Shown: piece after piece, positions 2,282-19,525 of the stretch
Layout of the letters: each line of letters starts with the position of its first letter
Numbering within the stretch: the first letter of the stretch is position 1
Assembly: GCA_030167865.1 (NCBI GenBank)
Contig: JALAGF010003430.1
Span: 1 to 56,363 of the forward strand
Direction: 5' to 3'
From: Craspedostauros australis
Lineage: Eukaryota
DNA length: 56,363 nt
Made by a program: the position numbers and the translations under genes
Notes under the pieces: model-generated
Seen by the model: the letters and a program-made list of their open reading frames with translations, nothing else
The model's database searches: none
What the model was told of the DNA's origin: nothing

Positions 2282-4735
2282 ATGAAAGCTGAGGTGGAGG
2301 CAGCTACGAACGGTCATGGTGGCGAGAGTGGTGTGGAGGAAGCACCATGCGTGAGATCGCTGATCGAAGGAAGATGGACGCCGCGGCCTTGTCATGAACA
2401 GACCCCGCAGCGGTTGGCAACGTGCATCTCCAAGATGTCGATGTCACCGCCATCGCCGTCATCATCGGTACCGTCAACATCATCGCCCACGATGCGGGAT
2501 GGCACGCAGGGATTCTTCGAACCGACGGTACCGCACGCTGCCACGTGCTCTTCAACGAGCTGCTCTCCCATCATCATCCAGGAGAGGTACATTCTGTCGG
2601 TCGTCACGGTGAGCGGGTCTGCAGGTGATTCCATTGCAGCTGCTGCCAACACCGGCAATGGGAACAGTGCCAACGCGGAGACGCGGAAGGTCTGCTTCCT
2701 TCTCCACGAGCTGTCGATCCCGAGAGATCCGACGAGTCGGACGAAGACGGAGCCGATCCATCGCCTCGTCGTAGATTACGATGTCTCCATCATCCAGTGC
2801 TTCTGCCACACGCTTCCCAGCCACTCGCAGGACTCTGATGAGACGCTCATGATTGCTGCGCTGTCGACGGAGGGATACGTCTTTTTGCTGGTGCTGCGTG
2901 ACAGTGCCAGCGTCAGCAGCCCAACTAACAGAAACAGCAGCAGCAACTACAACTACAACAACAGTATCGGCAGTACCGACCACCAAAGCACCCATGAGAG
3001 CGCGTCGGTGCCGAAGCTCGAGCTCAATTACGTTTGGCACACAGACCGAGTTGGGGCCAGCAACTTCGCCGTCCGATTGAACCTGCCAACATCCGAGAGA
3101 GATCACCCTTCCATCTCGATCCACATCGGTTATCAATCCAACCACATCGAGTGCTGGCTCATCGTTGCGAGAGAGGACGCGCTGGAGTCGCCTTACGTCA
3201 GGACGAGGAGACCGCTGAAGAAAGGGAGCATGGCAAAGACTAATCCGCCCACGACCAGAGACACGTTCCTCTTTGACAGACCCGATGTGGTTCAGATATG
3301 GAGCGGGTTGCTCGATGGGCCAATTCGTGCACTGTACTCCTTCACGTTCGGGCAGGATGCGACCAGCGCCAGCATCCGGACTAAGACGGGCAAAGCGGAT
3401 AGTTTCCACCCTCCTGCAAACAGCGCCGCCAGTACCACAGCCCAAGCCTATCCACGGTCCCTACGCTTCCCCCAATTCATCAATCGCAATGGATCCGCAC
3501 AACATGGGCACGGTCACGGTCGTGGAAATGGGCACCCGGGTCAAGGCCAAGGTCAAGGCAACGTTATCATCCACGCGGACATGGAGAAAGATGATGCAGC
3601 GTACCTAATCGTCATCATCCAATCAACGCAGAACGAGAATAGTGCACAAAAATCGGCAGCAGCAAGACGGGGATCTACGCCCGCTAAAGAGGAACCCATC
3701 TGCCGCGTTGAGATGATCAACCTCGAGAGTGTCCTATCGGCTTGGAATCAGCTCCAGAAAGAGATGAACGGGCCTCAGCATGTCACGTTGATGGATCATG
3801 CTGTCCCGCAGGAAGTGAGAATCAACGCCACATCGAAGACCTCGGACTCGAACATTTCAACAGGTCACGGTGGTGGTGGAAGCACCATCAGTACGAGTAC
3901 GGATGGAAGAGCAAGGAACCAGTCATCGTCAACGCGGCTGCCTCCGCTGGTCCCATGCGTTGGAAGCGATGTCATCCGCACTGTGCACGGCGATTCGTCC
4001 AGTCATCGGTGCGGCGTGACCATGTCTGATGGAAGCGTCCTCTTCCTCACCGCTACGAAGACCAAGAACAACGGCGCTTCATGGGGGACCTTCAATGAGG
4101 TAGATTGCAACATGCTGATGTATCCATCGATCGGATGTGGCATCGCAGCAATTCGCGGCAAAACCAAGCACATGATATGCTGCACACGAAGCGGCACTGT
4201 CTTCATTATCCCCGCGCACAAGGTTCATCAACCCATCAGTGAATCCACAATCCTGACCACGAGCTACCCGGAGGATACTGACTTCGATTCACCGGTGACC
4301 TACGTCCAATCCTTCCAAGCGGGGAACCTCCTTCTGAAACACGGCAGCGAGAGGGTGAAGCTCCCTGTGCTGATCTTTGGATGGACCAATGGCATCATGG
4401 ACGTGTACGCGTGCAGTTTGCTACCATCCAGTTTGATCGAGGATTCCACAACAGTTGCAGCGACGCAGATGAAACCAACCGTTCCGGTGGAGCAGCAGGT
4501 GCTGATTGAAGACTGCTGGGAGAATGGGTCGATCGAGCTCCTGTTCCAACTCCTCGAGCATCTGCAGGACGATCCGAATAATCCGTTGCTGCGAGATCCA
4601 ATGTGGAAGGCAGCGCTCGCGGAATTCGTGGAGCTTTCGGACTATCCCGACAGCATGGTCGATGTCATGATGGAATCCGAGATGTATCCTGCTATGCGAT
4701 CGACCCTCCTTTCCTTGTCCACAGTTTCGGATTGA
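2282..4735 (+). CDS. Uncharacterised protein with predicted beta-rich segments; C-terminal part resembles ITFG2 (KICSTOR subunit)
   Basis: 848-codon uninterrupted ORF (2189-4735); likely ATG at 2261 or 2282. Short hydrophobic beta-strand-like blocks are separated by S/T-rich linkers. Motifs MICCTRSGTVFII, VQSFQAGNL and PVLIFGWTNGIMDVY recall the ITFG2 C-terminus. Family call is tentative. Confidence 0.7.
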   Translation: MKAEVEAATNGHGGESGVEEAPCVRSLIEGRWTPRPCHEQTPQRLATCISKMSMSPPSPSSSVPSTSSPTMRDGTQGFFEPTVPHAATCSSTSCSPIIIQERYILSVVTVSGSAGDSIAAAANTGNGNSANAETRKVCFLLHELSIPRDPTSRTKTEPIHRLVVDYDVSIIQCFCHTLPSHSQDSDETLMIAALSTEGYVFLLVLRDSASVSSPTNRNSSSNYNYNNSIGSTDHQSTHESASVPKLELNYVWHTDRVGASNFAVRLNLPTSERDHPSISIHIGYQSNHIECWLIVAREDALESPYVRTRRPLKKGSMAKTNPPTTRDTFLFDRPDVVQIWSGLLDGPIRALYSFTFGQDATSASIRTKTGKADSFHPPANSAASTTAQAYPRSLRFPQFINRNGSAQHGHGHGRGNGHPGQGQGQGNVIIHADMEKDDAAYLIVIIQSTQNENSAQKSAAARRGSTPAKEEPICRVEMINLESVLSAWNQLQKEMNGPQHVTLMDHAVPQEVRINATSKTSDSNISTGHGGGGSTISTSTDGRARNQSSSTRLPPLVPCVGSDVIRTVHGDSSSHRCGVTMSDGSVLFLTATKTKNNGASWGTFNEVDCNMLMYPSIGCGIAAIRGKTKHMICCTRSGTVFIIPAHKVHQPISESTILTTSYPEDTDFDSPVTYVQSFQAGNLLLKHGSERVKLPVLIFGWTNGIMDVYACSLLPSSLIEDSTTVAATQMKPTVPVEQQVLIEDCWENGSIELLFQLLEHLQDDPNNPLLRDPMWKAALAEFVELSDYPDSMVDVMMESEMYPAMRSTLLSLSTVSD

Positions 4736-9752: not shown

Positions 9753-10792
9753 CTTGCTTGCTTGTTTTTTGATGTCTTGGTGGTGCGTGTTTGCTTTGTT
9801 TGCTTTGTTTGCTTTGTGTTTGGCGCAATTCTGTTTTTGTGAGGGGTTGGGGCAGAAGCACGAGATGTGGTGACGCGACCTACAAATGTGTTGTCTGTCT
9901 CGATGGAAAGAGCGGAACTGAAAGACAGGAACCCTGTCAAAGCGGTTCTGTTTGGCCTCCCTTGACAACCTCCTTCCACAAGAGAAGTCATCGCAATCCG
10001 AAACAGAGAGGAATCGGAGCTCGCGCAGCGTGTATCGTTTCGAACAACGCGGAGAAGAGGAGGTGCCTCCACTTCGCCTCCAGACATACGACTACTCCCA
10101 CAGCCATCCGCTGAATTCGGAACTAACGAAGCGAACCGTATAAAAACTAATCTAGGGCCAAATCGTGACAAACAATACAACTCGAGTCACTAGTCCCAGA
10201 TATGTCTCCACAATGTCCTAGACGTGTCGCAGACGGACCACACCTTTCTCCTCACAATTTTTCAAGCGTTGGGGCGAAGAATTTTCGATTTTCCACAAAC
10301 ACGCTTCGTGCATACACTCACATCACTGGCAACATGGGTTGTGCTTTGCAGCAGGCCGAGATGACATCGAGCACCCAGCACCGACCATCGGACATCACGT
10401 TTCATTGCGTTCCATCACACCACATCTCGTGACAAGTCCTCGACAGGACACACCTGAGCGAGCAGTACAAATAGAGTACATGGTTTTGCTGATCACGCCA
10501 TCATCAGTCCAACACCATCGAGGCAAACCACATTGATGCTGAATCCCTCCTCGTGACAGAGACAGCATTCCCACTCCAACCAAGCAAGAACCTGGACGCA
10601 GCTCCTGTGCAAAGCAACCGACGAAAAGTTGTCCATTGAAAGGCGAATGAAGATAGAGTGGAATGGTATCGCACTTATAGTACATACTCTACAAGCTCCT
10701 ACTACTCTGCTATACTTTGCCCAATTCTTTGGATTTCAAACGCTTGAGACAAGTTCGAGAAGGCATCGATTACATCATCACAACTCTTGACA

Positions 10793-10795
<3 letters not shown>

Positions 10796-10867
<72 letters not shown>
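10796..10867. repeat. (CT)n microsatellite, ~36 units
   Basis: Perfect CT dinucleotide run ~180 nt upstream of the 11049 ATG. Confidence 0.98.
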
Positions 10868-10869
<2 letters not shown>

Positions 10870-11048
10870 ACAAAGAGGCATACTCCAACTCCGGCAACCT
10901 GAACAATACTCGCATTCACACTCGCACTTGCACCCTTCCTCGCAGCCGAGCGTTCCATCCATCGACAACAATCAGGACCGACACTGCAAGCACCGAGCAT
11001 CATTGTCTTCAGTACCTTTCGAGCTACGACGGAGCGCACGCTTGCATC

Positions 11049-11317
11049 ATGTCCAGCATGCCCAACAGAGACAGTGGCACCGATTTCGCATTCATGAGTT
11101 CGTACAATGATACCGCAGACTTCGAGACCACAAATTCCTTGGGGCAGCAGCAAAGTCCGTCCATACCACCATCGAAGGCATCAAGCGCCGCCGCGCCTGT
11201 CCTGTCAACCACGAGCGATGATTCGTCCGCGACTATGGCATCTCAGAGCCGTCATTCCGGTGGTATCACGTACTACGACGAGGATGAATCGACCTACTAC
11301 CATGGCGACTACAACGA

Positions 11318-11351
<34 letters not shown>

Positions 11352-14300
11352 GATTGCGAGGATGTAAATGGCGCTGACAATGGTGCTGGCCGTGGCCTTT
11401 TCTTCCTTGCCGACGACGAATCGGATCGACGCAAAACCAACACCATCCCTATCGATCATCTGATCGACAACGCTATCGACGGCCCAATCGAATATCCTAT
11501 CGACAACATGAGGGACTGCGCCAGTACGAGCAGCCCCAGCGACGGGCCTATCCATATCGATCGCGATAGGTTCGACGATGAGGACATCCAAATGGACGGT
11601 GATGACACCACCGAAAGTGCGGACGATGACTTCGTCGAACAGGATGCAGGGAGCTTCGCCTCGTCGTTGGGAGCTCCTGCCTGCAGCAAGGACGGCGATG
11701 ACAACTCCTTCACGGGACGGACCACAGACTCATCATCAGCTCTGACACTCTCGCTCAGCCCTCAAGGCCAGCAGCGGCCCGAACCAACAAGATTGACAAG
11801 CGCCATGACGCCATCACGATCAACATCGATCTCTGCCAGCCATGATGACGGATCCTTGACACGCAGCTCCAACCACAGCCCATCGGAGTCAAGCACATTG
11901 AACAGCTCAGACACGTGCGGCAGTCCAAATTCTGTCGCACAACGATCCAACTCAAGAAGCGTGCACCGATCTTTGACACCCAGAGAGGTCCTGGCTTCCG
12001 AATCTCGCAGTGGCCCCGACAAGTCACCGTCGTTCCAAATACCAATGCAGCACGCAGTGATTGATCAGCAGCCAGCAGAGGTGATGGCAGACCAGAGTCC
12101 ACGGAATTCATCGTATTCCAACAGTACAGGCCAATCCACCACGTTCCACAATGACAGGTACTTCCAACCAGGATCACCAAACCCACACAACAGCGAACCA
12201 CGAGTTCTCGATGCTGCCTCGTCTCACCAGTCGAACAGCAGCATGCTGGAGTACTCGCCATCATCCTCAAGGCGATATTCGCCGACCATGCAAGTGGATC
12301 AGGCCGATCATCGTGAAGTCATCAACCGGGCCTACTTCACCCCGACTCGGAAGCAACGAAGCATGAAAACCCGCAGCATTGAGGATGAGCGCGAGGGCGA
12401 TGGACTATTCCTGGACAACGTGGACTACTACTCCAACCTGGACGAAGCATCGGCGACATCCATGTCCATCGTCGAATTCGTATCAAAGAAGATAGCAAAG
12501 AGCGCTTTCTGTCGACGCTTCGTTCCTGTCACTCTGGACCTTCCGACGACGTTTGATGATGAGATCTCCAATCTCGACGACAGATCTGCACGCTACGGAC
12601 ACCGTCGCAAGAGGAAACCGCTAATGTCAATGAAATCTTCGTCGTCAGAAGAATCAGAGGGTACAAGGAAGAAGAACGGATCCTATCTTGCAGTTCAGAC
12701 CAGCATGTTTGGTAGAATCATCGAGACGGAACAATTGGACCATAGCCGTCACAATGAGTTCAGCTTGACGAATCAGACCGAATCAGAGCGAGGACGACGA
12801 CGGCGCGATGGCTCGTCAAACTACATGTGCTTGGAGAACGTGGACTACCTCTCACAGGTTGATGTGGCATCTGGAAGCCATGGTCTCTCCACAGTCAATG
12901 GTAGCTGGCGACAGGATGACGCTGCCATGGCTTTCGTTGAGCAGGACGGGTCGAATGGAAGCAATTCAAGCGAACGCCGTTCCACGACATCGAGCGTGTC
13001 GTGCGCCAACAATGGTGCAGAAGAAACCGATGATCAGCATTCCCGGCATTCACAGTATTCATGGCATCCGCAGCGTTCGCGGCATTCGCAGCGTTCCCGC
13101 CAATCTCACCACCACCATCACCATCACGTTCCAGTCGTAACGACCGTATGCAGCAGTCAACACAACAGCACCACGAACCATGACGAGAGTGACGGAACTG
13201 AGTACTTGCCCGCATCAATGATGAATGATCTGCGAGTCGAAGTGCCGCAACAGCCACATGTGGATTCGTTCTCCACCATGGAATCCGTTTCCGAAGTGTC
13301 GGCGGAAGCGATGGAAAACGCAACTACCACGCGATCGAGCAGCACCAGAGACAGCAACAGAGCGACCAAGCCACCGCAAAAGGACGAGCATCAACGAACC
13401 AAGAAATTGAGCGAACTTTCCCCTGACGAGTTGAAGGTCAGCATCGACATCATGCAACAGCTGCTGCAGGAGTCGGATCAGGAAGAACGTCGCCGCCGTG
13501 TTGGTGCATTCGGGCTGCCCTCTGCAAGATCGAAGTCAAGGGAGAAGCACCGGAACCAGAACACGCGGAGACGTGCAGAACTAGCAACTTCTCGGCTCAA
13601 ACAGAAGATGGAAGAAGCCTCCACTAGAGGCAAGACTAGAAGCTCAAATCCACAAAAGGCTGCATCAAGCCAAAACAGACCTTCGCGCGCCAGGTCAATG
13701 GAAGGTGACGACCGCCGGCGGAGAGCGTCAAAGGAAAGCAAGAGGAGGCGCAGCCGATCCCGCGCAAGAACCGAACGGAACGGTCACACTGAGACCATTA
13801 ACTCTGCTGCGAACCCAAACAGGAACCGCAGGTCCAATAATCAACCGAAATCGTCGCCACACTCATCGCGCGACGATGCCGACGTCAACACAAACACAGA
13901 GGCACATGCTAACAACACCAAGAATGACATTGACTCTGAGAGAAACAACCGGCATCGATCGAAGCGCGTCGAACTGGACCCAGATCAAGGGCTACCTGAT
14001 CAAGTGGAAGTTGACATTGAAAACCCAACGTTGACGCTTCAGGAGGTCAACTACATGTCATCACTCTCTTTGGCACGCAATAACAACAACATATCGCCCG
14101 TGCAGTCTCAGATGTCGAAGGCTGTCGCCCGGGATGCCTTTGCTTTGCCCAAGCTCGGCAGGAGCGATGGCGCGAGACATGCTGGTGGCGGCAGGAACAA
14201 TGCGGCGAGCAGCAACCGTCCACACAACAACAAGGGTGGACACGTTGCAGGGGATGGCTTCGAGAGTGATAATTGCCTAGAAGGAATCGACCTGGAGGAT

Positions 14301-14690
14301 TATGATCCCAACGGACGCGATCAACACCCAAAGGGCAAGCTGGAGGCGATGAAGGTGCAGCTGGAAGAGCTGCGAAAGAAGCGATGCTGCCCGAAGTTCT
14401 CATGGGCGAGCTCTGAGAGTCGACGCATCTGGGAGACGATCCAAAAAGGGTGCGTATCGTGCACGAACAGCATGAAGCTCCAGTGGGCGAGGATGGGGCA
14501 GCAGCCGTGCATGGCAAAGGCCAGCGAGCGTGTCCAACCTTGCGTCCAAAGCACTCGCCAATGGTGTCACGCATCCTGGGAAAAGCACATGTCGGGACGC
14601 TCCAACTTGGAGATTGGCATTTTGATGCTGATCGCGGCATCGCTCTTCGTTCTCTTCATTCTGTTCATCATGTTCGTGAAGGAGGGGTAA
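11049..14690 (+). CDS. Large low-complexity (S/D/R-rich) protein with a single C-terminal transmembrane helix (tail-anchored type)
   Basis: 1213-codon ORF containing poly-D, poly-H and R/S-rich tracts. It ends LEIGILMLIAASLFVLFILFIMFVKEG*. The stop overlaps a GTAAGT, so a further 3' exon cannot be excluded. Confidence 0.8.
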
Positions 14691-15044: not shown

Positions 15045-18000
15045 CTACTCCATCAGTTCCCTGCAAGGAATTGTCCCGTTTCCACCATTGAGGGAGCACA
15101 CCATCCCCGTTGGGTCTTCAATTCCCGTAGCTTCGGCCTGGGCTGCCATCATCCTCTTGTTCGCCCTGCTCGCACCTGACAGACGGAACTTGTCAGCCCT
15201 TCGTCTTGCCAGTTCACGCACGAGCTCTTCTTCCGATGCCTCTGCCAGGACTTTGCTCTTCGAAGGAGCGCTGGTGTCATTCTCATCATGCGACCCATGA
15301 GTGATCTCACCATTGGTCGTTGCTGCTGGTACTGTTGTTGTTGTTGTTGCCGCTGTTGAAGGTGATGCTTTCACTTCACCGTCACCAACAACTTGTTGCT
15401 GGCCGTTCACCTTCTCCTTTCTCTTCACCTTCGACGACTGTTGCTTCGGACGTCTTTTCTCGCATTTGACCTTGCGGCTTTTGGCCAGAGCTTCCTCAGC
15501 GTACGAACGCAAGATGGCCGTGGTGTCATCGTGCATGAGAGGCAAAAGCGAACGCTTGATGTTGTCGTAAAAGTTGGGGTACATGCTCTCCTCACGCTGC
15601 AGCAGCTTCTTGATCCGTGCGCGTTCCTTAGGTTCCTCGAAGCATGCGGGGCAATTTTCGTTGATGATGGGGAGGTTGGCGGACTTGGCAAACTCCGTCG
15701 TGAGGCTTTCGCGGCAGTACACAAGCGGCCGGATGACGGAGAGATCACCAGCATTGATCTGATAGTGTGCCTTCATGGTCCTGAGGAAGCCGTTGTGCAT
15801 GACGCTCATCATGAATGATTCGGCGAGGTCGTCCAGGTGCTGCGCCAGCACCAACTTGTTGCAGTTGTTCTTTCTGGCCGTGCTGTACAGCACCCCTCGC
15901 TTCATCCTGGCACAGAAGGCGCAGAGTGACGACACGATCTGACCATTCTCCCCTGCCGAATTGGCACGTTCCACGATGTCATCCCGCACGTAATGGTACT
16001 TCAATCCCAACGACTCTACGTAGGAGATCAGCGGGGACGGATCGAATGACGGAGTCATGGGGTCGACCGTGCACACTTCGATGTCGAACTTGATGGGTGA
16101 CTTGCGTTTGCATTCCATTAGGATGTGGAGCAAACTCAACGAATCCTTGCCGCCGGAGAGCCCCAGCAGCAATCTGTCGCCATCCTCGAGCATATCCCAT
16201 TGCACGATTGCCTGAGTCACGAGCCTCATCATCTTGGGTGGCGGTATGACATGCAGCACTCCCTTTTTCTTCTTCTTCTTCGTCTTGCCTGCTGCGGGCT
16301 GCATTTGCAGTTGCGTGTGCAATGGCGATTGCTCTTGTTCCGCATGTGATCCAACTGTTCCATTTTCCACGTCTGAAGTTTGTGTTGATGGAACGGACAA
16401 GGACACGGATCCCGTCATCTCCGGTGCCTTGATTGAGACGAACGTTCCCTGCCCCCACGTCGTGCTGTCCCGAGACGGTTTCTTCTTTTGGTTCTTTTCA
16501 TCCACAGGAAGGACGAGCTTGGCAGGGACAGGGGAAGGCGCAGGGATAGCGACAGGAGCGGGCACTGGAGTTGCCGAGACTCTGCCCTTTTCGACACTCG
16601 CGCTTGATTTAATGTTGTTGACCCCATCGGGCTTGCCGCTCGGAATGTCAGTTGTTGATGCGACTTCGGGATCGATACCCAAGTATTCTCGGATTGGGAT
16701 CCATTCATCCATGGACGGAATATAGATCACGCAGTCATCCGACAATTCGCCATCATCGTAACCGGCTTCGATCTCTTCTCTTGGCGCTTCGCCGCTGTGA
16801 TGTTCTCCATCCTTGAATGTGACAACGTCGGGCATATCCAGGAGCGCGGCTGAGCTTTCATATTCAACGCCGTTGCTATGCCCATTACTGACTGCATTCG
16901 GCGTTGGCTGCATCGGCGTCGATGGCGTCGGTGCGACTGTCTGCTTCTGGGACACGTGTCGTGGAGCACCTGAGATCTTTGTTGGCACTGCTCGCTTTGG
17001 GTACCATGCTGTTGGCCTCAGCGCTCCGAGGAGATTGCCACGTTCGTATGTTCCTGGGACTTGCTCCATCCCCTGCGAAACAAATGTTGCAACTTCCTTG
17101 GGGTAAATGTACCAACGCAGCTGCTCCAACGCACTGTCAGAATCGCCCATACCGCCTCCGGCCTCGTTGGTCATCTTGAGGGCCTGCTGGATTCCAACCA
17201 AGTCTGTGCGCGCCAATTGGAGCAGAGCATCTGCATTTTTCATCGTCTGCTGCAGTACGACGTCCCACGACAACACCACCTGCTGTTGGCCTGTTTCTAC
17301 ACGGCTCGCAGCTACGCTGCTTCTACCGCTGATGGAGGTCGAAGGCGCGAATGAATAGTGCGACAGCCAAAGTCGTTCGCGCTTGCCGAGCGGTGCGCCT
17401 TGGCGTTGCTTGTGCCGCCATTCACCGGTCCTGTGGTTGCATCTGTACGACGGCAGCAACGACCACCCGTTTCGTGCGACCCACTCGATGGCCTTGATCA
17501 CGTAGTCCACCTGGAGGGACGATACGCCCTTGAATGGGAGCGACAGCCGCGTGAAACCCGGACGCAACAGCTCCGAACGTTCCTTGGCGTGCACCAGCGC
17601 TGTTTCGATTTGGTCATTGAGCTGAGACGGAAATTCGTTGCCAGATGCATCCGTCTCAGTCAATCCCAGCAATCGCTGCGAGTACGGACCTGCGCATTGG
17701 CATCCTCCGCGTGATTGGATGCCAAATACGTCATTCAGAAGCGCGCAGACGTAGTTGTAGTGCAGAAAGCGCGGGCCGCATTTAACGAGGAACGAGAAGA
17801 TCGGCAAGCGCTTCACAGAGTCGTTGGTGTCGGTGTCGCTGCCAAGCAGGATAAGGTTTGGAATGTTCTGCATCGCTGATGCCACCTTGTTGTAGGTTTG
17901 GAATTCGTAGTCCAATGCCGTCGCGGGAATGGCGCTGCCATTGGTTGTATCGCCTGCTGCTTCGTTTTGGGACTGCGCGAGTTGCGCGTACTTGTTCTGG

Positions 18001-19525
18001 ACCTGACGTTTGAAGAGCATGGTGAGGCCGACCCTCCAGATGCCGACAACGTTCGGGGTGCCGCCTTCGTATCGCTCGATGCGATTGGAAAGGAATCTGT
18101 GATGATCTTGGGTGACATAGAACACGGTTCCACCGCCCGATCGTCGTGGAGCGTTGACCTGCTGCACGAGGCGCTTCTTGATGACGAGAACACCAGGCGT
18201 GTTGATGCCTCCGATCATCTTGTGCGGCGAGAAGAAGATGGCGTCCTTGGCCACGATGGCGGGGTTGGAGGCATAGCGCTTGTCGTCCATCGGGTTCATG
18301 TTCATATTGAGGTAGGGCGCGCCCGTTGCGTAGTCCCAGATGGCCAAGGCGCCGTAGTGGTGCAGCATTGCCGTGATGGCGTTGGTGTCCACGACCGTCC
18401 CGGTGACGTTCGATGCTGCCGTGAATGTTCCAATCTTGACAACGTCGGTGGATTGGTATTTCTTCAGCAGGTTCTCCATCGCGAACATGTCCACCTGTCC
18501 GTGTTTCTCCGGAACCATTACGATTTCTGCGCCCGACTCTCGCCATGGCAGGAGGTTGGAGTGGTGTTCGTACGGCCCAATGAAAATGACGGTGTTGTTG
18601 CGTGCCGAAGTTGCGTCGCCCATGTGATGGAATCCCAAGCAATCCAGGAGCAGCTCGACAGCAGAAGTTGTTCCATTCCCACTGTGTGTGTGCAGTGTGC
18701 ATTGTGCATCCGGGGGTGTTGTGGAGATTGTGGGTAGCGTTTGTGTGTGTTTGTGTGTGCAGGTACGCAAATATGTGAAGACGAGTGTCAGACTCTCTGC
18801 CTCTCTCTTGCTTTGGATAGAAGCATGAATCCATGGATGCATGGATGCAGATACAAGCGCATACGCATACGCAAATGCATACAGGTAGATACATACATGT
18901 GGATACATAGGAGTCGACCACCATCCATGACAAGACCAACTTACGCGAAGAGAACAACGTCTTGACTGGCCTTGCCTGTCGTTTTAGCGTTGACGGCTTC
19001 TGCCACCAACTGACGACCCTCGGCGCAGAACGCGGTGGATTGCGACCCCGTGATGGAGGTGTTGGTGTGGGTGTTGCCATAGAACGGCAGGCAGGCATGT
19101 TGGAGGTAATTCTCCATGGATCTGAGCGGACGGTTGGACGCTGTCTGGTCGCAGTACACCATCGGCAACGGAACCTTGCGGCCCTGCGAGATCTCCAAAG
19201 GCGACCAGAACATCGTTGGCCCCGCAGCGTGGAGGCCACCCCGATGGTGGGGATGATCGTTCGCCTCTGCGTCCATAGCGATCTGATCCCTCAACTCCTC
19301 AACGGTCGTGGCGCTCTGAATTGTTCCTGGAGCTGCGGTTCCTCCAATGTTGGCATCAGCACCATCCTTTCCAGAACCGGATTCAGCTGGCGAAGCATCC
19401 GAGGCCATCTGCGGTGCCACCTGACCAAGATGAGCTTGCTCGCTCAGCGAGGTGCCGCATTCCAAGCTTCGTTCTTGCTCAGCGTTGCTCAGCGACGGAG
19501 ACGCGGCATTCTTTTCTTCACTCAT
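15045..19525 (-). CDS. Fusion: class-V aminotransferase/cysteine desulfurase + GYF_2-like module + TtcA-type tRNA 2-thiocytidine synthase (~1405 aa); complement(join(15045..18681,18945..19525))
   Basis: Desulfurase motifs: YCDQTAS, YGNTHT, EHHSNLLPW, AASNVTG, WDYA, FFSPHK (PLP Lys), RGGCQCAGPY. TtcA motifs: LLGLSGGKDS (PP-loop), CAFCARMKRG, AQHLDDLAES, IRPL, CPAC. The GTAAGT (18944)...CACAG (18682) intron joins VVLFA|GNGTT in frame. Confidence 0.92.

Follow-up and report, generated by a model that had tools for sequence, protein, structure and literature searches.

A class V desulfurase-like module fused to a TtcA-type domain in a single polypeptide of the diatom Craspedostauros australis

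The window analysed here is the whole of a 56,363-nucleotide stretch of DNA, contig JALAGF010003430.1 of Craspedostauros australis. On its minus strand lies a nuclear diatom gene for a two-module enzyme of 1405 amino acids, the features of which are as follows.

19525-18945 and 18681-15045, minus strand: the gene, in two exons
18945..19525, minus strand: exon 1, codons 1-193 and two bases of codon 194
19430..19465, minus strand: N-terminal motif LECGTSLSEQAH, common to diatom and bolidophyte orthologues
19136-19156 and 19064-19081, minus strand: exon 1 motifs YCDQTAS and YGNTHT
18682..18944, minus strand: intron of 263 nt, GTAAGT...CAG, phase 2
15045..18681, minus strand: exon 2, a single open frame of 1211 codons, then TAG
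17313..19225, minus strand, intron inside: desulfurase module, residues ~101-650 (Pfam Aminotran_5, 1.3e-23; conservation profile)
18219-18230, minus strand: SPHK with the PLP-binding lysine (protein K348), aligned with S-G-H-K of solved SufS-type desulfurases
17688-17711, minus strand: RGGCQCAG, active-site loop with two cysteines (C521, C523), aligned at motif level to SufS 'RaGhhCAqP'
17541-17564 and 17412-17429, minus strand: RPGFTRLS and TGEWRH in the conserved C-terminal extension of the desulfurase (~100 aa)
16263..17312, minus strand: linker of ~350 aa, rich in S/P/V/A/G/T, low-complexity and poorly conserved
17100-17120, minus strand: conserved linker island LRWYIYP (L650/W652 near-invariant in A2)
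16260-16286, minus strand: lysine run KTKKKKKKG at the linker end
15528..16238, minus strand: TtcA-like PP-loop domain, residues ~1009-1245 (NF007972, E. coli TtcA alignment, trees)
16140-16157, 15912-15923 and 15828-15842, minus strand: TtcA-like motifs SGGKDS, CAFC and QHLDD
15723-15734 and 15642-15653, minus strand: TtcA-like motifs IRPL and CPAC
15411-15458, minus strand: basic cluster KRRPKQQSSKVKRKEK, upstream of the C-terminal tail
15048..15245, minus strand: C-terminal tail, conserved in diatoms and chrysophytes
15048-15098, minus strand: tail end CSLNGGNGTIPCRELME, with a cysteine pair C-x10-C adjoining the C-terminus

The start ATG is located at 19525-19523, and an in-frame stop is present three codons upstream of it in the same exon. 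Exon 1 encodes the acidic, poorly conserved N-terminus followed by ~95 residues from the start of the desulfurase fold, and exon 2 encodes everything thereafter, from the remaining desulfurase through the linker and the TtcA-like domain to the C-terminal tail. When read unspliced, the frame meets a TAA directly after exon 1; the spliced coding sequence of 4218 nt has no internal stops, and the exon junction (QDVVLFA followed by GNGTTSAVE) is colinear and free of indels in 11 of the 12 aligned homologues, the exception being a 732-aa Acropora model with a gap there. The fusion is independent of the intron call because both catalytic modules sit within the exon 2 frame. The Pfam matches to both modules (Aminotran_5, 1.3e-23; ATP_bind_3, 3.3e-14) are above their cut-offs, and a stop-free frame of 1312 codons combined with two significant domain matches is far beyond chance. 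The fusion of a desulfurase and a TtcA-type domain in one diatom polypeptide is confirmed as real: the earlier note had described one spliced ORF that carries a class V desulfurase together with a TtcA-like domain, modules that look intact and both lie in the one 1211-codon exon frame, and every motif that it listed (SPHK, RGGCQCAG, SGGKDS, CAFC, QHLDD, IRPL and CPAC) was found.

The diatom gene is a further member of a barely explored eukaryotic fusion family and not a one-off. Both parts are present in 194 of 260 homologues, and the fusion was found in diatoms, bolidophytes, chrysophytes, alveolates, Rhodelphis and most animal phyla. The fused homologues, which keep the same domain order, include chromosome-scale animal assemblies and transcriptomes, and two transcriptome ORFs marked 'type:complete' (P0019 and P0025) contain both domains according to Pfam. 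Fused proteins already bear automatically assigned names, 'cytidine(32) 2-sulfurtransferase' being one example. The Triparma paralogues have an added thioredoxin domain, and the Chromera orthologue has a weak dsRNA-type zinc finger (21.5 bits, under its cut-off).

In the homologue alignment, conservation of the desulfurase begins at about residue 101. As judged from sequence comparison, the N-terminal module is a relative of the type II (SufS/CsdA-like) PLP-dependent cysteine desulfurases: its top NCBIfam match is the SufS subfamily (88.5 bits, under the 475 cut-off) and its top PDB sequence matches are SufS/CsdA-type desulfurases, which belong to the same fold family and likewise have the S-x-H-K lysine, an E-H-H-x-N motif and an R-x-G-x-x-C-A-x-P loop with a cysteine at the same place. 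It differs from them in that identity is only ~30-35% and scores are far under the family cut-offs, in the second cysteine of its loop two residues before the catalytic one, in the ~100-aa C-terminal extension, and in that a SufE/CsdE-type acceptor is not evident for the diatom protein. Among 30 fused proteins, the Ser and His of SPHK are invariant and the Lys is kept in at least 90%, whereas the loop Arg and both loop cysteines are invariant in all 30; an Asp is conserved too. The second loop cysteine occupies the position of the persulfide cysteine of SufS/CsdA (R-x-G-H-H-C-A), the aligned stretch being weak and not significant alone. The C-x-C loop is also present in bacterial stand-alone relatives of the module; the nearest stand-alone relatives are unnamed bacterial proteins with 42-46% identity, and members with no attached TtcA partner occur in bacteria and oomycetes. 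The module belongs to an unnamed class V subfamily that scores far under the SufS, CsdA and SclA cut-offs.

Profile and tree comparisons place the C-terminal module among the PP-loop ATP pyrophosphatases of the TtcA family. The TtcA profile NF007972 matches it over positions 22-254 of 295 with 198.6 bits, under the NCBI equivalog cut-off of 272, compared to 61.6 bits for TilS-N, 37.8 for NcsA and 34.0 for TtuA; the earlier assignment of the domain to the TtcA type, and not to Ctu1/Ncs6 or TilS, holds. E. coli TtcA aligns to the diatom domain with 32% identity over 222 aa (E 5e-43), CAFC falling on its C122/C125 and CPAC on its second CxxC. Three cysteines of E. coli TtcA were shown to be the essential ligands of its [4Fe-4S] cluster (Bouvier 2014). 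All three are kept in the diatom domain: the first CxxC contributes both of its cysteines and the second CxxC its latter one. The SGGKDS PP-loop and all four CxxC cysteines are unchanged throughout the 30 fused proteins compared. The diatom domain has the PP-loop and the cluster ligands in common with the TtcA of E. coli and Salmonella, the family that is also its best NCBIfam match. However, E. coli TtcA is a stand-alone protein of 311 aa that obtains sulfur from a separate IscS, while the diatom domain is fused to its own desulfurase, falls in a separate subfamily clade under the equivalog cut-off and carries the cysteine-pair tail. Ctu1/Ncs6, NcsA and TtuA belong to the same PP-loop superfamily and have a [4Fe-4S]-dependent mechanism, and U34/U54 2-thiolases appear among the PDB sequence matches (6scy, 1.5e-9; TtuA, 2.3e-5), but the NcsA and TtuA profiles match far more weakly than TtcA, and the flanking CxxC...CxxC zinc fingers of Ctu1 are absent from the diatom protein by motif scan and Pfam, as had been noticed earlier. 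Ctu1/Ncs6, NcsA and TtuA receive their sulfur via a ubiquitin-like thiocarboxylate, with no fused desulfurase as the donor.

The tree sets every TtcA-like row apart from TilS (100/100), and the diatom domain groups with the other eukaryotic fused domains and a bacterial subfamily (98/98); the animal and diatom TtcA parts form one eukaryotic clade (86/95). The branch between the subfamily and canonical TtcA is long (1.58). The closest prokaryotic relatives, with 49-57% identity to the diatom domain, are TtcA-like proteins of sulfur-oxidising Gammaproteobacteria (Thiothrix, Thiofilum, Acidithiobacillus, Thiomicrorhabdus, Beggiatoa-type and others), which are the sister or nearest group to the eukaryotic domains. 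They have the motifs LP[VI][IV]x[ED]NCP[AG] and DDxAESF[LM]M in common with the diatom domain and are likewise sub-threshold for the TtcA HMM (200-224 bits), but are stand-alone proteins of ~255-325 aa. A desulfurase resembling that of the window was found within 5 kb of the bacterial TtcA-like genes at none of 79 loci, and the neighbours of the bacterial subfamily genes are housekeeping genes. Another strong TtcA match was absent from five of five genomes with the subfamily form; of 121 Pseudomonadota genomes, 37 have canonical TtcA and three the subfamily form, with no overlap between the two sets. This distribution suggests that the subfamily form takes the place of canonical TtcA in these bacteria.

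An unreviewed preprint of 28 Sep 2026 (bioRxiv 10.64898/2026.09.27.754811) reports 2-thiocytidine at position 32 (s2C32) in sea slug (Aplysia) tRNA-Lys(UUU), which was chosen for mapping as a predicted cytoplasmic tRNA, and describes in Aplysia a fused 'IscS-TtcA', an 1177-aa CsdA and TtcA-like protein with an architecture also seen in other molluscs; the enzyme is linked to s2C by homology only. The preprint makes two statements of the earlier note out of date, namely that s2C is generally a prokaryotic modification and that such fusions have no functional characterisation. Our homologue P0405 matches the preprint protein in length and residue numbering, has the same module order as the diatom protein, and is 42% identical to its desulfurase part (E 1e-102) and 50% identical to its TtcA part (E 4e-72). 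The Aplysia and diatom proteins also share the long, poorly conserved linker, the desulfurase C-x-C loop and the thiolase CxFC...CPAC pattern. The diatom protein differs from those of molluscs in its lineage-specific acidic N-terminus with the ECGTSL motif and in its C-terminal C-x10-C tail, which the Octopus protein does not have. In its available text, the preprint compares the desulfurase with type I IscS and not with type II SufS/CsdA, identifies no catalytic cysteine by this comparison, and leaves protists unmentioned. The s2C carrier in Aplysia is tRNA-Lys(UUU), in contrast to the Arg and Ser tRNAs of E. coli. Among the papers listed in literature searches, none reports s2C in diatoms.

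By homology, we propose, with a probability of roughly 60%, that the fused protein is a cytosolic tRNA C32 2-thiolase with a built-in sulfur source, acting on some cytosolic tRNAs. The first module would draw sulfur from free L-cysteine, the second loop cysteine carrying it as a persulfide, and the sulfur would then be handed on, within one molecule or between the subunits of a dimer, to the free iron site of the second module's cluster. The second module would use ATP to adenylate C2 of C32, and the hydrosulfide on the cluster would displace AMP, yielding s2C32. It may be speculated that the persulfide is resolved, or the enzyme re-reduced, by the adjacent cysteine of the loop, by the cysteine pair in the C-terminal tail or, in the Triparma paralogue, by thioredoxin. 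The [4Fe-4S] cluster itself would still have to be supplied by the Fe-S assembly machinery of the cell. The earlier description of the enzyme as 'self-sufficient' is too strong, as an enzyme of the TtcA type still depends on a [4Fe-4S] cluster that is made elsewhere (Bouvier 2014). Through the fusion, the thiolase would have a sulfur supply of its own in the cytosol, independent of mitochondrial NFS1 and a Urm1-type relay. In ABA3/MOCOS, a class V desulfurase is likewise fused to a module that consumes its persulfide. Natural cysteine desulfurase-rhodanese chimeras, which are built on a similar plan, have also been reported (10.1101/2020.03.25.008375). The acceptors in those systems are, however, MOSC or rhodanese domains, the products are different, and none acts on RNA.

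It is possible, though unlikely, that the same chemistry is directed at another target, such as a different nucleotide (e.g., uridine), another tRNA position, rRNA or mRNA, in which case the protein would not be equivalent to E. coli TtcA. Given the sub-cut-off TtcA score and the deep, long branch from canonical TtcA, the substrate or position could differ; the Aplysia substrate tRNA of the preprint is unlike the E. coli ones, and the lysine run and basic cluster flanking the domain, as well as the sub-cut-off zinc finger of the Chromera orthologue, hint at extra RNA-binding features. Nevertheless, TtcA is by far the top family match, the subfamily and canonical forms occur together in none of 40 TtcA-positive bacterial genomes, which fits functional replacement, and the only fusion-bearing eukaryote with a mapped tRNA, the Aplysia of the preprint, has s2C at position 32.

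We regard as more doubtful the idea that the N-terminal module is not a sulfur-donating desulfurase but a selenocysteine lyase serving seleno-modification, another C-S lyase, or a cysteine-sensing PLP domain with a regulatory or stabilising role. The low SufS-subfamily score makes another PLP-dependent C-S or C-Se lyase activity possible; the C-x-C loop is unusual, the stand-alone members in bacteria and oomycetes have no TtcA partner, and the failure of the preprint's IscS comparison to locate a catalytic cysteine points the same way. Against this stand the conservation of the PLP lysine, His, Asp, Arg and both loop cysteines across the fused proteins, the fit of the second cysteine to the type II position, and the fact that animals, alveolates and stramenopiles alike have kept the module joined to a sulfur-inserting enzyme, for which sulfur supply is the simplest explanation.

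The linker has an identity to 12 homologues of 0.08-0.37 per 50-aa bin. Of the 161 fused proteins that extend 25 aa or more beyond the TtcA part, 82 have a C...C.E[LM]-type tail. The N-terminus (MSEEKNAAS...) carries a net charge of -4 in residues 1-30 and lacks a hydrophobic core (highest Kyte-Doolittle value for any 12 aa, 0.19), and no transmembrane-like segment was seen in the diatom fused protein. The N-termini of 14 orthologues, complete transcriptome ORFs included, have net charges of -7 to 0 over the first 30 residues with no classical signal-peptide core seen among them; motifs resembling LECGTSLSEQAH occur near the N-terminus of P0011, P0013, P0019, P0025, P0034, P0088 and P0109, and the diatom orthologues have an acidic ECGTSL motif near the start in common. 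The earlier claim of no signal or transit peptide agrees with this acidic, non-hydrophobic N-terminus with no visible targeting signal, and the absence of signals suggests that the fused protein is probably cytosolic.

An organellar protein acting on bacterial-type tRNAs in the plastid or mitochondrion, with an upstream targeting exon missed, is improbable. TtcA is bacterial-type with its nearest prokaryotic relatives in Gammaproteobacteria, and the 5' end of the gene model was set from sequence alone, but the in-frame stop that precedes the ATG within exon 1, the acidic or neutral orthologue N-termini, the shared ECGTSL motif and the predicted cytoplasmic nature of the tRNA mapped in the Aplysia preprint all argue against this. 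Finally, the misreading of two adjacent genes as one, or an assembly chimera, had no finding in its favour and is effectively refuted by the 1211 codons that run across both domains with no stop and by the same order and architecture in the 194 homologues, those from chromosome-scale animal assemblies and transcriptomes included.

The fusion gene of Craspedostauros australis lies on the minus strand (19525-15045) and consists of two exons, whose joined coding sequence of 4218 nt specifies 1405 amino acids without an internal stop. Its product is composed of an N-terminal desulfurase module, a linker and a C-terminal TtcA-like module.

Features of the fusion gene and of its product
19525-19523, minus strand: start ATG, with an in-frame stop three codons upstream
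19525-18945, minus strand: exon 1, with GTAAGT directly after it and, if unspliced, an in-frame TAA at once
19430-19465, minus strand: acidic N-terminal motif LECGTSLSEQAH with one cysteine, common to the diatom and Triparma orthologues
18684-18682, minus strand: intron acceptor CAG, leading into exon 2
18681-15045, minus strand: exon 2, a 1211-codon open frame with TAG at its end
15048-15098, minus strand: C-terminal cysteine-pair tail CSLNGGNGTIPCRELME, conserved in diatoms

The protein reads QDVVLFA/GNGTTSAVE across the splice junction (marked by the slash), and 11 of 12 aligned homologues are colinear with this stretch and show no indel there, the exception being a short Acropora gene model. 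Exon 2 alone holds most of the desulfurase, the linker and the entire TtcA-like domain; since it is a single open frame across both modules, the fusion is independent of the intron call. The fusion reported in the earlier note is therefore right, both modules being in one open exon, and all motifs quoted there were found at their coordinates in the gene. An artefact of gene modelling can be rejected because the 1211-codon frame is free of stops and because both modules were detected (phmmer test) in 194 of the 260 homologues stored from two protein searches. The other 66 stored proteins have the TtcA part only and are often fragment-like. Transcriptome ORFs marked complete (the stored homologues P0019 and P0025) are listed with both Pfam domains, and transcript-level support comes from such relatives only: a single sequencing run, of which the RNA origin is a guess, gave one 784-nt contig on 15000-15638, which reaches neither the junction nor the intron. 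The window contains no tRNA genes.

A published counterpart of this gene is found in a mollusc. A preprint of 28 September 2026 (bioRxiv 10.64898/2026.09.27.754811) describes 2-thiocytidine (s2C) in tRNA-Lys(UUU) of Aplysia, at position 32, and terms it the first eukaryotic s2C; it also points to a 1177-aa CsdA + TtcA-like protein conserved in 28 mollusc species. The mollusc protein is reported to have a conserved PLP lysine, K301, conserved cysteines C448, C450 and C588, a 'C-CSFC-CPAC' pattern and a variable linker of ~405 aa (10.64898/2026.09.27.754811). In the available passages of this unreviewed work the link between enzyme and s2C is correlative, without genetics or enzymology, and the desulfurase is compared with type I IscS without placing the catalytic cysteine. 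One stored homologue, P0405, has the features that these passages describe (1177 aa, K301, C448, C450, C588, CSFC and CPAC). Two colinear stretches of the exon-2 protein of the window match P0405, one with 42% identity across 452 aa (E 1e-102) and the other with 50% across 240 aa (E 4e-72), which places the diatom gene in the Aplysia-type fused family. As in the Aplysia protein, so far as the passages describe it, a desulfurase, a long variable linker and a TtcA-like domain follow one another in one polypeptide, with C-x-C in the desulfurase and CxFC...CPAC in the thiolase. The Aplysia preprint, judged by title and abstract, is the only report of eukaryotic s2C that we found. A literature search outside the subscription journals found nothing on the fused protein in diatoms or other protists, and no relevant literature on 2-thiocytidine in diatoms.

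The fused family extends well beyond molluscs and diatoms. A protein search restricted to lengths of 666-2120 aa gave 876 matches, of which the best 120 were used, and an exhaustive HMMER search with the TtcA-like domain as query matched 401 of 1.84 billion cluster representatives at E<=1e-30; the best 150 of these 401 are mostly 900-1400 aa long, with the domain near the C-terminus. Fusion carriers include the diatoms Nitzschia, Pseudo-nitzschia, Skeletonema, Thalassiosira, Seminavis, Epithemia and Mayamaea, the bolidophyte Triparma, a transcriptome entry labelled Paraphysomonas, and Rhodelphis, Gregarina, Chromera and Besnoitia. When an Octopus protein was used as query, all 120 matches listed had both Pfam domains, and these came from molluscs, a brachiopod, hemichordates, amphioxus, echinoderms, cnidarians, sponges, Trichoplax, chelicerates, crustaceans, hemimetabolous insects, tunicates and a tardigrade. 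Several matches are already named automatically, for example 'tRNA-cytidine(32) 2-sulfurtransferase'. The novelty assumed in the earlier note is accordingly reduced, the fused family being widespread in eukaryotes and having reached the literature only a few weeks ago; the window gene is a new member of this family, from a new lineage. A contig titled as an uncultured Verrucomicrobiota MAG (L002:2459-5777) also carries desulfurase-like pieces (2459-2800 and 3480-3767) upstream of a TtcA-like part. The latter is 71% identical to that of the window and groups with diatoms in the tree, and the gene copy appears to be interrupted by introns; the contig is evidently eukaryotic and seems to have been mis-binned into a bacterial MAG.

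The C-terminal module is matched by Pfam ATP_bind_3 (PP-loop family; 3.3e-14, over the cut-off) and has its PP-loop motif SGGKDS at 16140-16157 on the minus strand. Among NCBIfam models, TtcA (NF007972) gives this domain 198.6 bits, which does not reach the cut-off of 272, the TilS N-domain (TIGR02432) 61.6 bits, below its cut-off of 93.6, and NcsA and TtuA give 37.8 and 34.0 bits, also below their cut-offs. Aligned with E. coli K-12 TtcA (E 5e-43), the domain shows 32% identity, with CAFC on C122/C125 and CPAC on the sole other CxxC of the E. coli protein. Bouvier 2014 (PMC4081106) identified three cysteines as essential ligands of the [4Fe-4S] cluster on which synthesis of s2C at tRNA position 32 (s2C32) depends, namely C122, C125 and the second of the two in the other pair, and by alignment the window domain retains equivalents of all three. 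The paper numbers the second CxxC 219/222 vs 210/213 in the RefSeq translation; because it is the only such pair in E. coli TtcA, we take Bouvier's 219/222 to be C210/C213. It also names Cys46 and Cys200. Since the RefSeq translation of ttcA at the E. coli K-12 locus (L001:11014-11949) has cysteines at positions 45, 122, 125, 191, 210, 213, 255 and 290, the numbering in the paper is not uniform with RefSeq. No solved TtcA structure was found by sequence search, and the nearest solved relatives are NcsA (6scy, 1.5e-9), a [4Fe-4S] U34 thiolase, and TtuA. 

Two other identities of this domain were considered. TilS is rejected by the score of 61.6 bits, below 93.6, and by the position of the TilS rows as an outgroup in the tree; Ctu1/Ncs6 is rejected by the 37.8 and 34.0 bits of NcsA and TtuA vs 198.6 of TtcA. 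Zinc-finger CxxC pairs flanking the PP-loop were not seen, with no cysteine in the ~50 residues preceding the domain, and the window protein has no zinc-ribbon Pfam match at E<=0.01. The assignment to the TtcA type, already made in the earlier note, is thus borne out against Ctu1 and TilS by the ranking of HMM scores and, for TilS, also by the tree. Because 198.6 bits is below 272, and the related bacterial proteins likewise reach only 200-224 bits with the TtcA model, the window thiolase is, as judged from its sequence, TtcA-family or TtcA-like rather than a proven equivalog.

These bacterial proteins belong to a distinct TtcA subfamily that includes the window thiolase. When one genome per prokaryotic species was scanned, at least 582 loci with a close relative of the thiolase were found and the best 80 were retained. 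Apart from L002, the mis-binned contig, all of the latter (79 loci) belong to Pseudomonadota, largely sulfur oxidisers such as Thiothrix, Thiofilum, Acidithiobacillus, Thiomicrorhabdus, Beggiatoa-like bacteria, Thiomargarita and Sedimenticola, and are 49-57% identical to the window domain, vs 32% for E. coli TtcA. In all five carrier genomes checked, the subfamily form is the sole strong TtcA-family match, and an even sample of 121 Pseudomonadota genomes contains canonical TtcA in 37, the subfamily form in three and both in none. A desulfurase like that of the window was found beside the TtcA-like gene at one of the 80 loci, which is the eukaryotic L002. The conserved neighbours at the 79 bacterial loci (lipid A acyltransferase at 33, Band 7 at 14, D-Tyr-tRNA deacylase at 13) are housekeeping genes that are not related to sulfur.

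A careful maximum-likelihood tree was built from 71 rows, 68 TtcA-like and three TilS; Ncs6/TtuA were left out of it and compared by HMM score only. All TtcA-like rows are separated from TilS (UFboot/SH-aLRT 100/100), canonical TtcA is recovered (99/94), and the eukaryotic fused domains group with the bacterial subfamily (98/98), the main split being also present in an earlier quick tree. The 32 eukaryotic rows make one clade (86/95; 90% of bootstrap trees), inside which animals (100/100) and the stramenopile set (94/97) are found. The sister relation of the eukaryotic clade to the bacterial rows is supported at only 43/60 to 60/72, and we therefore assign no direction of transfer between bacteria and eukaryotes to the TtcA part.

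The N-terminal module is matched by Pfam Aminotran_5 (1.3e-23, over the cut-off). Its best NCBIfam match is the SufS subfamily, at 88.5 bits for the exon-2 part vs a cut-off of 475, and its best PDB sequence matches are desulfurases of the SufS/CsdA type (type II). FSPHKMIGG, with the PLP lysine, aligns on FSGHKMLG of a SufS chain, and EHHSNLLPW on EHHANIVPW. The loop SRGGCQCAGP is colinear with RAGHHCAQP of type II chains in a weak stretch that is not significant on its own; from this alignment, the second loop cysteine of the C-x-C would thus stand at the type II persulfide position. Stand-alone class V relatives occur in three of the 121 Pseudomonadota genomes (L120, L121 and L122) as ORFs of 472-574 aa at 42-46% identity, which have the same loop as the window (YGIQARGGC[AS]CAGPY) and no NCBIfam name, their best match being again the SufS subfamily (136-154 bits at full length vs 475). 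The remaining 22 matches in the 121 genomes are ordinary SufS-like proteins at 30-35%. Judged by these matches, the N-terminal module is a separate, unnamed subfamily that is type II-like.

A quick desulfurase tree places the entire C-x-C family apart from SufS (support 100, branch length 3.45) and recovers animals with Rhodelphis, alveolates and stramenopile groups, with bacterial rows among the eukaryotic ones and an unreliable root. When the tree is rooted on SufS, the root falls within diatoms, which looks like a long-branch artefact, and for this reason we derive no donor or direction from it. The thiolase and desulfurase trees are broadly congruent, which would fit one old fusion followed by vertical descent and does not prove it. 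Oomycetes have relatives of stand-alone length at 40-46% identity to the window desulfurase. Four of their proteins (P0355, P0368, P0375 and P0377; 569-665 aa), too short for the fused form, make a clade of their own with support 89; these short desulfurases could be products of fission or of loss of the thiolase part.

Thirty fused proteins, taken from stramenopiles, alveolates, Rhodelphis and animals, were aligned. In their desulfurase module, the serine and histidine of the PLP site, the aspartate, the loop arginine and both loop cysteines are invariant, and at least 90% of the sequences retain the PLP lysine. All 30 proteins likewise share, in the TtcA-like module, an unchanged SGGKDS, both aspartates of QHLDD and the four CxxC cysteines; CQC, CAFC and CPAC are all present in the window protein. 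A conserved extension of ~100 aa (RPGxxRLS ... TGEWRH) runs past the usual desulfurase fold, and the linker of ~350 aa is of low conservation and rich in S, P, V, A, G and T. An island in the linker, LRWYIYPKE (17100-17120, minus strand), resembles the C-terminal RWFWWPHE of the 574-aa bacterial stand-alone relative (L121:1141-2862) as well as VKWYSPPKH just ahead of the TtcA part in P0405, and this island may be where the desulfurase module really ends. Predicted docking of the two modules gave scores of 0.00 and 0.00, which is no verdict either way.

The ends of the protein differ between lineages. A short cysteine-pair tail closes the stramenopile and alveolate proteins and was found in 82 of the 161 proteins with enough sequence past the domain. 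It takes the form C..D..Y-C..CYELA in chrysophyte-like proteins and TACGxxGxC in alveolates, and is absent from the Octopus protein. The N-terminus is acidic and non-hydrophobic in the window protein and its orthologues, from which we infer that the protein is likely cytosolic. In the N-terminal part of the fused Chromera velia protein (P0212, residues 178-201), a C2H2 zinc finger of the dsRNA-binding type (zf-C2H2_jaz) is matched weakly, its 21.5 bits falling slightly short of the 22.6 cut-off. A second bolidophyte paralogue in Triparma strigata and T. verrucosa (P0176, P0268) combines Aminotran_5, PP-loop and thioredoxin Pfam domains, which suggests that the fused enzyme may need a disulfide reductant.

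The protein has, in conserved form, all residues needed for PLP chemistry, for ATP-dependent adenylation and for binding the cluster. By analogy with type II desulfurases and TtcA, cysteine would be desulfurated on the first module, the second module would receive the persulfide sulfur at the open iron of its [4Fe-4S] cluster, and C32 would be adenylated and then attacked by the sulfur with release of AMP, the linker possibly serving as a flexible tether. It can be speculated, from the Triparma thioredoxin paralogues and the cysteine-pair tails, that a disulfide or persulfide is resolved in each cycle. The interpretation of the protein as an s2C enzyme, put forward in the earlier note, appears reasonable. 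Its description as self-sufficient may hold for sulfur and does not hold overall, because the cluster would have to be supplied by the cell.

Taken together, these observations allow a tentative reading, to which we give a probability of about 0.3. s2C32 would be an old and widespread modification of eukaryotic cytosolic tRNA rather than a prokaryotic speciality, written by a desulfurase-TtcA fusion that arose once before the split of stramenopiles, alveolates, Rhodelphis and animals; the usual model organisms would have lost it later. Through its C-x-C desulfurase, the enzyme would have its own sulfur route from free cysteine to tRNA, avoiding NFS1 and the Urm1 relay, thiolation of the anticodon loop in diatoms would report cytosolic cysteine, sulfur (and iron) status, and the cysteine-pair tail or fused thioredoxin would act as a built-in redox reset. 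If the enzyme works as proposed, diatoms and many other eukaryotes would have a tRNA modification that was regarded as exclusive to bacteria and archaea until a few weeks ago, and a single protein would tie together free cysteine, Fe-S status and anticodon-loop chemistry. The window gene itself is an ordinary conserved orthologue already named automatically in databases, and the surprise is thus moderate. Beyond the available passages of the preprint, our analysis adds that the fusion spans several eukaryotic supergroups, that the thiolase lies in a distinct TtcA subfamily common to sulfur-oxidising Gammaproteobacteria without canonical TtcA, that the desulfurase appears to be type II, with a likely catalytic cysteine that can be named, and that there are lineage-specific putative redox add-ons (the cysteine-pair tail and the thioredoxin fusion).

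A 1299-codon open frame on the plus strand (10791-14690) converges on the fusion gene, with ~355 bp between their ends. It starts behind a (CT)n-type repeat, which translates as SLSLSL..., and its product is of low complexity, rich in serine and acidic residues.
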